64,000 nt of DNA from Naegleria gruberi (Eukaryota). Positions 54,268 through 55,623 of the stretch are shown in pieces (position 1 is the first letter of the stretch; each line of letters starts with the position of its first letter). A program made the position numbers and the translations under genes. The stretch lies in the NCBI GenBank assembly GCA_000004985.1, contig GG738849.1; one strand, 5' to 3'. The notes under the pieces are model-generated. The model made no database searches, had not been told where the DNA came from, and saw only the letters and a list, made by a program, of their open reading frames with translations.

Positions 54268-55209
54268 CTAAATATTTTTTTTTATTATCCACTTATCAAA
54301 TGGTGGTTGAGATTTCATAGTATTCAATTTGATAACGTAGGTGGATTCTCTCTTTTTAATTTCGTGGTATGTTTTCATGTTTGGTTCCTTGTTTTCCAAT
54401 AGTTGAGCCAGTTCTGCACTCAGTTCCTTTCTTTTAATACAATTAATGAAGGATTTAAAGAAGATGTGTTTAGATAGTTGAGTGGCTGCTTTTGGAGTAT
54501 TTTCATCCTTCTTGGTTGTTCCTTGTTTGTGACCTTTCATACCAATAACAACTTCCTCAACATGAGATTGATTTTCCTGTGCTAAATTCAAGTAAGATCC
54601 TATACTATATCCACTGCCTTTTATCTTTGTTTCTGAAGCTCTATCAGAGAAATGTGGAATATTCGATACACCTTCCTTAAATAAGTAAAACGAAGGAGTC
54701 TTGGTACTTAATTGGTCAACTCTATCAACAATTGATTGATTCAATCGTTGTTGTGTGAGTTCCAAATCCAATTTAGATTTTTCACTCAACAATATTAAGA
54801 ATTTGTCAACAAAAATTGGTTCAAAAAAGTTTGATAATAATGATCCTTGAATTCCTACAACATTCCACTTTGTAATCTTGTCACTGCAGGACATGCTCTG
54901 ATTTCTTGAGCCTCCTCCAGGTTTTAGACGAACTAGATTGATAGTTTGATCCTCTCCAAACTTTTCATGAGTGCATGAATCGTTATGAATAATTTTAGAA
55001 CCAGTTCTACCTTCCAGTATTACCTTCTTTCTTTGTTTTTGGTTCTGATGAGTTTAGTTCTGTTTCATCTAGTTTCCGTTTCATATCATTCGGTTCAACA
55101 TTTTCAGACTTGTTGAGCTGTTCTTCATTATTTGCCTGGCTGTTTTGTTCAATAGTTTCACTTCCACTACTGACAGTACTAGGAGAATTAACAATTGAAC
55201 AATCCCCAC
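54268..55209 (-). CDS. ADAT1: ADAT1-like, exon 3 / C-terminal region (contains a reading-frame discontinuity near 55010-55060)
   Basis: A 50-nt intron spans 55210..55259 with acceptor TTTTCAAG, restoring PC-GDC (the PCGD Zn motif). Downstream RLKPGGGSRNQSMSCSDKITKWNVVGIQGSLL matches ADAT1 ([30 protein letters not shown]). The upstream part of this region, however, is in a different frame that stops at a TAG near 55012. Confidence 0.5.
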
Positions 55210-55259
55210 CTTGAAAATAATTCTTCTAATAAAATTATGAAAACAATCCAATAACATAC

Positions 55260-55623
55260 ATGGCAATTCTGTTAATATCATGTATAATTCAAAATTATTC
55301 TTCAATTTCCACCTCTCCACTTCTTCTACCCAATCAAAATATTCCGAACACTTTCCACTCTCCATTAAATTGTACATAAATTTCATAAAACTTCTCCTTG
55401 CCATAACTTCAGCATGACAATCATGAAGTAAATATCCATTATTGATATCCTTCTCAATCAAGTCATGTCCGATACATTTTGTACCTGTACCAATCGAGCA
55501 GACAATGAATTTCTTTTCTTGTGGGATTGAATTATTAGAGCAATCCACTAAAACGAGAGCTGCAAAAATTGTAAATTCACTTCCTTGTGGTTTTCCTTTT
55601 TTTGTCACTTTGTCTGAATAAAA
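55260..55623 (-). CDS. ADAT1: ADAT1-like, exon 2 (deaminase core)
   Basis: A 42-nt intron spans 55624..55665 with acceptor CTATAG. KKGKPQGSEFTIFAALVL, GTGTKCIG and the Zn-ligand motif HDCHAEVMARRSF are present. The GTATGT donor is at 55259 after TELPC. Confidence 0.7.

Follow-up and report, generated by a model that had tools for sequence, protein, structure and literature searches.

Why does a conserved tRNA deaminase gene of Naegleria gruberi strain NEG-M switch reading frame in the middle of its last exon? The gene lies on the minus strand of the window, by which we mean the whole 64,000-nt stretch of DNA that was analysed, and it is an ADAT1-like gene of three exons separated by two short introns of 42 and 50 nt (Table 1). 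The upstream frame of the third exon can be followed from position 55207, reads GDCSIVNSPSTVSS...MKRKLDETELNSSEPKTKKEGNTGR, and ends in NVEPNDMKRKLDETELNSSEPKTKKEGNTGR before the TAG at 55009-55007. The conserved block, THQNQKQRKKVILEGRTGSKIIHNDSCTHEKF...RLKPGGGSRNQSMSCSDKITKWNVVGIQG (EGRTGSK...SCSDK; EGRTGSKIIHND...VRLKPGGGSRNQSMSCSDKITKWNVVGIQG), lies in the other frame and continues to the natural stop at 54268. An earlier note on this DNA had described the exon that restores the PCGD motif as running into a TAG, and the conserved block as opening in a different frame after a TAA (55056-55054); both descriptions are borne out on the minus strand. The two open frames share the 44 nt between TAA and TAG, and to bring them into one frame a net 3k+1 nt must be taken out or 2 nt inserted. 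Read as it stands, the window gives a product of 210 aa that covers only positions 1-119 of the 329 positions of the A_deamin profile and is without the SCSDK zinc ligand.

Table 1. Parts of the ADAT1-like gene and elements at its frame break, in window coordinates (a slash marks a splice junction).
Feature	Position	Strand	Remarks
ADAT1 exon 1	55666..55731	-	ATG at 55731; MSFNNDGCTTHHFGNLMKHVFK; same as N-terminus of the public protein XP_002681784.1
ADAT1 intron 1	55624..55665	-	42 nt, phase 0, GTTAGT...CCTATAG; position common to orthologue L001
ADAT1 exon 2	55260..55623	-	HAE catalytic motif (H92 A93 E94 invariant); ends ...LYMILTELP plus base 1 of the Cys codon
ADAT1 intron 2	55210..55259	-	50 nt, phase 1, T/GTATGT...TTTTCAAG/GT, ending TCAAG; splicing recreates PCGDCSI
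ADAT1 exon 3 (last)	54268..55209	-	single coding exon in intact alleles; two frames in the window through a 2-nt gap
55-nt 'intron' of the public model	55045..55099	-	aat/GTTGAACC...CTCATCAG/aac; deduced from XP_002681784.1; judged coding (VEPNDMKRKLDETELNSS)
TAA closing the conserved downstream frame on its 5' side	55054..55056	-	frame translation
Frame-shift site	55028..55030	-	window AAA, AAAAA (CAAAG-AAAAA-GAAGG) in contigs L004 and L005; gap inside Lys codons
Imperfect 13-nt tandem repeat	55002..55027	-	GAAGGTAATACTG and GAAGGTAGAACTG, 11/13 matching; at the frame overlap
Premature TAG ending the upstream frame	55007..55009	-	frame translation of the window as is

The answer comes from near-identical DNA in which the exon is intact. 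Two contigs, L004 and L005, are Illumina assemblies of ERR1078381 (PRJEB11402), a sample filed as 'metagenome' that holds N. gruberi-like DNA about 99.7% identical to the window. L004 (Logan contig ERR1078381_30651) was found through the window's own 175-aa ORF (55608-55081), and L005, an 8.5-kb ENA/MEGAHIT contig from the same sample, is the second member of that ORF's cluster. Both carry AAAGAAAAAGAAGG where the window has AAAGAAAGAAGG. Over 939 aligned nt, one SNP and a single gap of 2 nt set L004 apart from the window, the window reading CCAAAAACAAAG--AAAGAAGG and L004 CCAAAAACAAAGAAAAAGAAGG; its gene call is an ORF that begins MKRKLDETELNSSEPKTKKKKVILEGRTGSK and is still open past the contig end. 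L005 is 99.67% identical to window positions 60604-54641 (5971 aligned nt) and has SNPs other than those of L004, yet it shows the identical two extra A's, and its ORF MKRKLDETELNSSEPKTKKKKVILEGRTGSKIIHND...SMSCSDKITKWNVVGIQG... is continuous for 148 codons up to the end of the contig. Across these 5.97 kb it is separated from the window by 12 SNPs and four indel events. The ADAT1 gap is placed by blastn at window 55027, and the remaining three indels (56071, 56061 and 55889) are all intergenic. Intron 2 is retained in both contigs, which are thus genomic DNA. They share one read set and should be regarded as two assemblies, apparently of two haplotypes, from one sample and not as two independent samples. 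When the two A's are restored to the window, exon 3 becomes one continuous ORF (...EPKTKKKKVILEGRTGSK...), and the window then encodes a 457-aa protein. Therefore, the suggestion that an indel had occurred in the A-rich run aaaaacaaagaaag was right in place and in kind but wrong in size, two A's being missing (AAAAA to AAA at 55030-55028) and not one nucleotide.

The organism sampled in ERR1078381 is a strain or haplotype different from that of the window, and indel polymorphism between the two is common. The four contigs of this sample that align with window 52928-60604 (L002, L003, L004 and L005) are 98.8-99.7% identical to NEG-M, and several SNPs separate L004 from L005, so that it seems to contain two haplotypes or more. 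Exact-protein look-ups for this locus in NEG-M or in transcripts, made with the public protein, the ORF of 208 aa and, as hypothetical intact forms, four more proteins (the full-length one and the genomic ORF, each in L and V variants), brought up nothing new in the collections queried, and a PCNA look-up returned ERR1078381 contigs only. JGI metagenome contigs scanned for either allele gave no match, and a literature search for Naegleria together with ADAT1 gave no result.

A more distant relative has the same undivided exon. The protein match P0002 (47% local identity to the query) is borne on L001, a 7.8-kb Logan contig from SRR29240419, and the full-length protein reconstructed from this contig shows 51% identity to the repaired protein of N. 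gruberi. Past the intron that splits PC/GD, L001 is one unbroken ORF, GDCSI...NVNTLKRQQTLSIQMKSKKKMKIEGRTGSKIV (GDCSIIPEQPST...FDNVNTLKRQQTLSIQMKSKKKMKIEGRTGSKIVNN...), with no intron at the site of the frame break; in the linker, the repaired N. gruberi sequence KTKKKKVILEGRTGSK aligns with KSKKKMKIEGRTGSK of L001. Both intron positions of the gene are common to N. gruberi (window 55210-55665) and L001 (5340-5965), one of phase 0 after exon 1, at the K/FY junction of L001, and one of phase 1 within the Cys codon of PCGD. The second intron reads T/GTATGT...GTTAG/GT in L001 and is about 106 nt long there, against 50 nt in N. gruberi. The first intron of L001 has the donor GTACGG, a hexamer that joined ORFs in two of its three occurrences in the window.

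The gene is ADAT1-like; in tRNA-Ala, ADAT1 (Tad1p, tRNA-specific adenosine deaminase 1) turns A37 into inosine. A protein search returned one near-identical match, XP_002681784.1 / EFC49040.1, named 'tRNA-specific adenosine deaminase [Naegleria gruberi strain NEG-M]', and the next matches were plant, animal and oomycete ADAT1/TAD1 proteins at about 25-33% identity, all of them with Pfam family PF02137. The repaired protein scores 213 bits against A_deamin (PF02137) over profile positions 1-328 of 329. This is its sole Pfam family, and the absence of a dsRNA-binding domain marks it as ADAT1 and not as ADAR. The catalytic glutamate and the three zinc ligands are present and invariant in an ADAT1 alignment (H92/A93/E94, P143/C144/G145/D146 and C252), and C252, the cysteine of SCSDK, is downstream of the frame break in the window. 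Like ADAT1/Tad1p, the protein consists of one A_deamin domain that spans its entire length, has HAE, PCGD and SMSCSDK all in place, and shares with the aligned plant, animal and oomycete ADAT1 proteins a variable insert that separates PCGD from RTG(A/S)K. It differs in that the insert is here a lineage-specific acidic, lysine-rich linker, and in that, in the window, the frame break cuts off the C-terminal two thirds of the protein and with them the third zinc ligand. The best match of known structure is the deaminase domain of ADAR2 (PDB 1ZY7 and related entries, E = 4e-23), which can be aligned with the Naegleria protein in two blocks, HAE/PCGD and SCSDK...WNVVGIQGSLLS; however, ADAR2 is an editor of double-stranded RNA and possesses dsRNA-binding domains, which the Naegleria protein lacks. 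Judged by this conserved architecture, the window gene is an ADAT1/Tad1-type tRNA adenosine deaminase with putative activity.

We suggest the following account of the frame switch. A functional exon 3 would be one ORF, leading from PCGD through a variable acidic/lysine-rich linker into the conserved EGRTGSK...KPGGG...SMSCSDK core. In the window two A's are absent from CAAAG-AAAAA-GAAGG, inside lysine codons of the linker, and this gap puts the 262 codons downstream out of frame and exposes the premature TAG. On this account the frame switch amounts to the loss of 2 nt from the functional gene and owes nothing to an intron, to ribosomal frameshifting or to any other form of recoding, a reading to which we give a probability of about 0.9. 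We infer that the intact state is both ancestral and functional.

Any intron offered in place of the deletion has to be judged by the splice signals of the window itself. For each GTNNNN hexamer we counted how often it can join two frames, each open for 70 codons or more, over a short GT-AG interval. By this count GTAAGT joins ORFs in 11 of its 21 occurrences, against a background of 2.9% in the window; a donor consensus taken from all adjacent ORF pairs in the window gave no signal. Fifteen ORF-joining introns were collected, with lengths of 36-141 nt (14 of them within 36-76 nt), a T content of 33-52% and donors that all conform to GT(A/T)(A/T)GT, namely GTAAGT in 12, GTTAGT in two and GTATGT in one.

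The public protein reads ...EEQLNKSEN/NQKQRKKVILEGRTGSK..., from which it follows that the annotators removed 55 nt, 55099-55045. If that annotation were correct, a real spliceosomal intron (GTTGAA...CATCAG) would be spliced out there in NEG-M, and the segment does have GT-AG ends, a length of 55 = 3k+1 that falls inside the intron size range of the window, and a resulting protein that matches A_deamin in full. The Pfam score does not separate the two models (214 bits for the public protein, 213 for the repaired one), because the linker lies outside the profile. But the same 55 nt are identical and in frame in L004 and L005, where their deletion gives ...KRR* and many further stops, and the orthologue L001 has no intron at this place. 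The donor GTTGAA lacks G at +5 and T at +6, both of which 15/15 reference introns have. Ranked among all GT sites it stands at the 2nd percentile; the matrix behind this rank is partly circular, since its donors had been selected by pattern, but the unbiased count agrees, GTTGAA joining ORFs at background level (2 of 78 occurrences). With 18% T and 45% A the segment resembles the flanking exon and not the reference introns, and it is open in the exon frame. Splicing of these 55 nt in NEG-M would be expected to recur in the intact strains, whose sequence is identical, and the segment is therefore best regarded as coding. We would thus exclude the splicing by argument, from the damage that it would do in strains with identical sequence, the non-consensus donor and the coding-like composition, and we consider a correct annotation very improbable. 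Other introns fare worse still. A 130-nt intron (55174-55045, ACT/GTCAGT...CATCAG/) had been put forward in the earlier note, and GTCAGT is indeed a fair donor, at the 98.7th percentile; a 13-nt micro-intron, G/GTAATACTGGAAG/GT (55023-55011), would by its GT..AG removal give ...TKKEGRTGSK in frame, and it coincides with the tandem repeat of 11/13 matches. Yet any removal of 3k+1 nt breaks the ORF of the intact alleles, whose flanking sequence is identical, and for the 130-nt intron this deletion wrecks their frame at a place where L001 has no intron either. Thirteen nucleotides is far below the 36 nt of the shortest intron in the window and, to our knowledge, shorter than any spliceosomal intron. 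We can lend hardly any credence to a bridge of this kind. An enumeration of all GT/GC-AG introns of length 3k+1 that join the frames gave 24 candidates of at least 15 nt, the annotated 55-nt segment among them; not one has a donor that fits the consensus, and the intact alleles are at odds with every one of them.

Programmed frameshifting, the remaining mechanistic proposal, would take the form of a +1 shift at AGG-UAG-A, in which the ribosome skips the U and reads AGA-ACU-GGU (RTG), to give ...KKEGNTGR-RTGSK.... The zero-frame stop does overlap directly with the codon at which the conservation of the downstream block begins, and stop-adjacent +1 shifts are known elsewhere, in antizyme, RF2 and Euplotes. 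However, neither the two-frame arrangement nor the shift site is conserved in any relative (L004, L005 and L001 each have a single, ordinary, continuous ORF at the spot), and a 2-nt indel explains the break fully. AGG-UAG is no shift-prone heptamer that we know of, and a frameshift signal born of a recent deletion would be fortuitous. The proposal is left unsupported, and we regard such a shift as extremely unlikely. We also weighed the 13-nt tandem repeat as a source of the shift and discarded it, since the intact alleles carry it unaltered, as codons for (K)VILEGRTG, and repeats of its quality number four per 64 kb. Its position at the frame overlap is probably a coincidence. A mixed reading may be set beside these, in which NEG-M is homozygous for the deletion and yet makes active ADAT1, through cryptic splicing of the 55-nt GTTGAA...CAG segment or through the +1 shift at AGG-UAG-A. 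If true, it would be a case of a freshly arisen frameshift rescued by opportunistic recoding, but we hold it to be very improbable indeed.

The 2-nt deletion itself, as the preferred reading, may have either of two origins. It is an error in the reference consensus or a real, possibly heterozygous, loss-of-function allele of NEG-M, at roughly even odds; the assembly error that had been proposed for the run is thus not obligatory, and the gap could equally be a true allele. We lean slightly to the real allele, because a 2-nt consensus error is unusual and because the three other inter-strain indels look like ordinary polymorphisms. Genuine pseudogenisation, which had also been raised, is accordingly possible in the form of a strain-specific null allele. 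If the allele is real and homozygous, NEG-M would make the 210-aa product without the third zinc ligand, which is predicted to be inactive. Tad1 is dispensable in yeast, and an inactive ADAT1 would therefore be tolerable in NEG-M. A real deletion would make the standard laboratory strain a natural ADAT1 null, of interest for the study of inosine-37 in tRNA-Ala; otherwise, there is one further consensus error to correct in the reference.

In either case the public gene model is affected. In XP_002681784.1 the 55-nt 'intron' is a patch made by gene prediction, its length being 3k+1 nt by chance. It resembles the frameshift-compensating pseudo-introns of automated models in every respect, being a short GT-AG interval of 3k+1 nt with a non-consensus donor, placed just upstream of the break and joining the two frames; we see no difference from them, and the ADAT1 case is an ordinary one. 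Therefore, XP_002681784.1 / UniProt D2V2D7 (438 aa) appears to be mis-modelled, with VEPNDMKRKLDETELNSSEPKTKKK dropped and NQKQRK read from the wrong frame in its stead. The model is probably short of 19 genuine residues and has five frame-shifted ones, the corrected length being 457 aa. Gene models of N. gruberi have been checked for missing and extraneous introns with deep NEG-M RNA-seq, and eight were adjusted (bioRxiv 10.64898/2026.08.18.745565, 2026). In sum, the gene is a known one, its frame is broken in an ordinary way by 2 nt in a low-complexity lysine run, and a spurious intron of the public annotation masks the break; it presents no new mechanism and carries little biological weight.

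Two neighbours of the gene were also seen. A PCNA gene at 53232-54029, on the minus strand, adjoins ADAT1, and, both genes being read from the same strand, the gap from the ADAT1 stop to the PCNA start is only about 240 nt (window 54030-54267). Most of what distinguishes L002 from the window falls within this spacer, where one small segment, 54227-54231, is replaced. On the other side, a divergent neighbour occupies window 56033-60170 on the plus strand. It begins with a long, low-complexity N-terminal ORF that extends to 58258, has a 48-nt intron with the donor GTAAGT at 58255, and continues after this intron into an SNF2-family helicase part (Pfam SNF2-rel_dom and Helicase_C on the gene calls of L005), so that it looks like a two-exon Rad5/Rad16-like gene.
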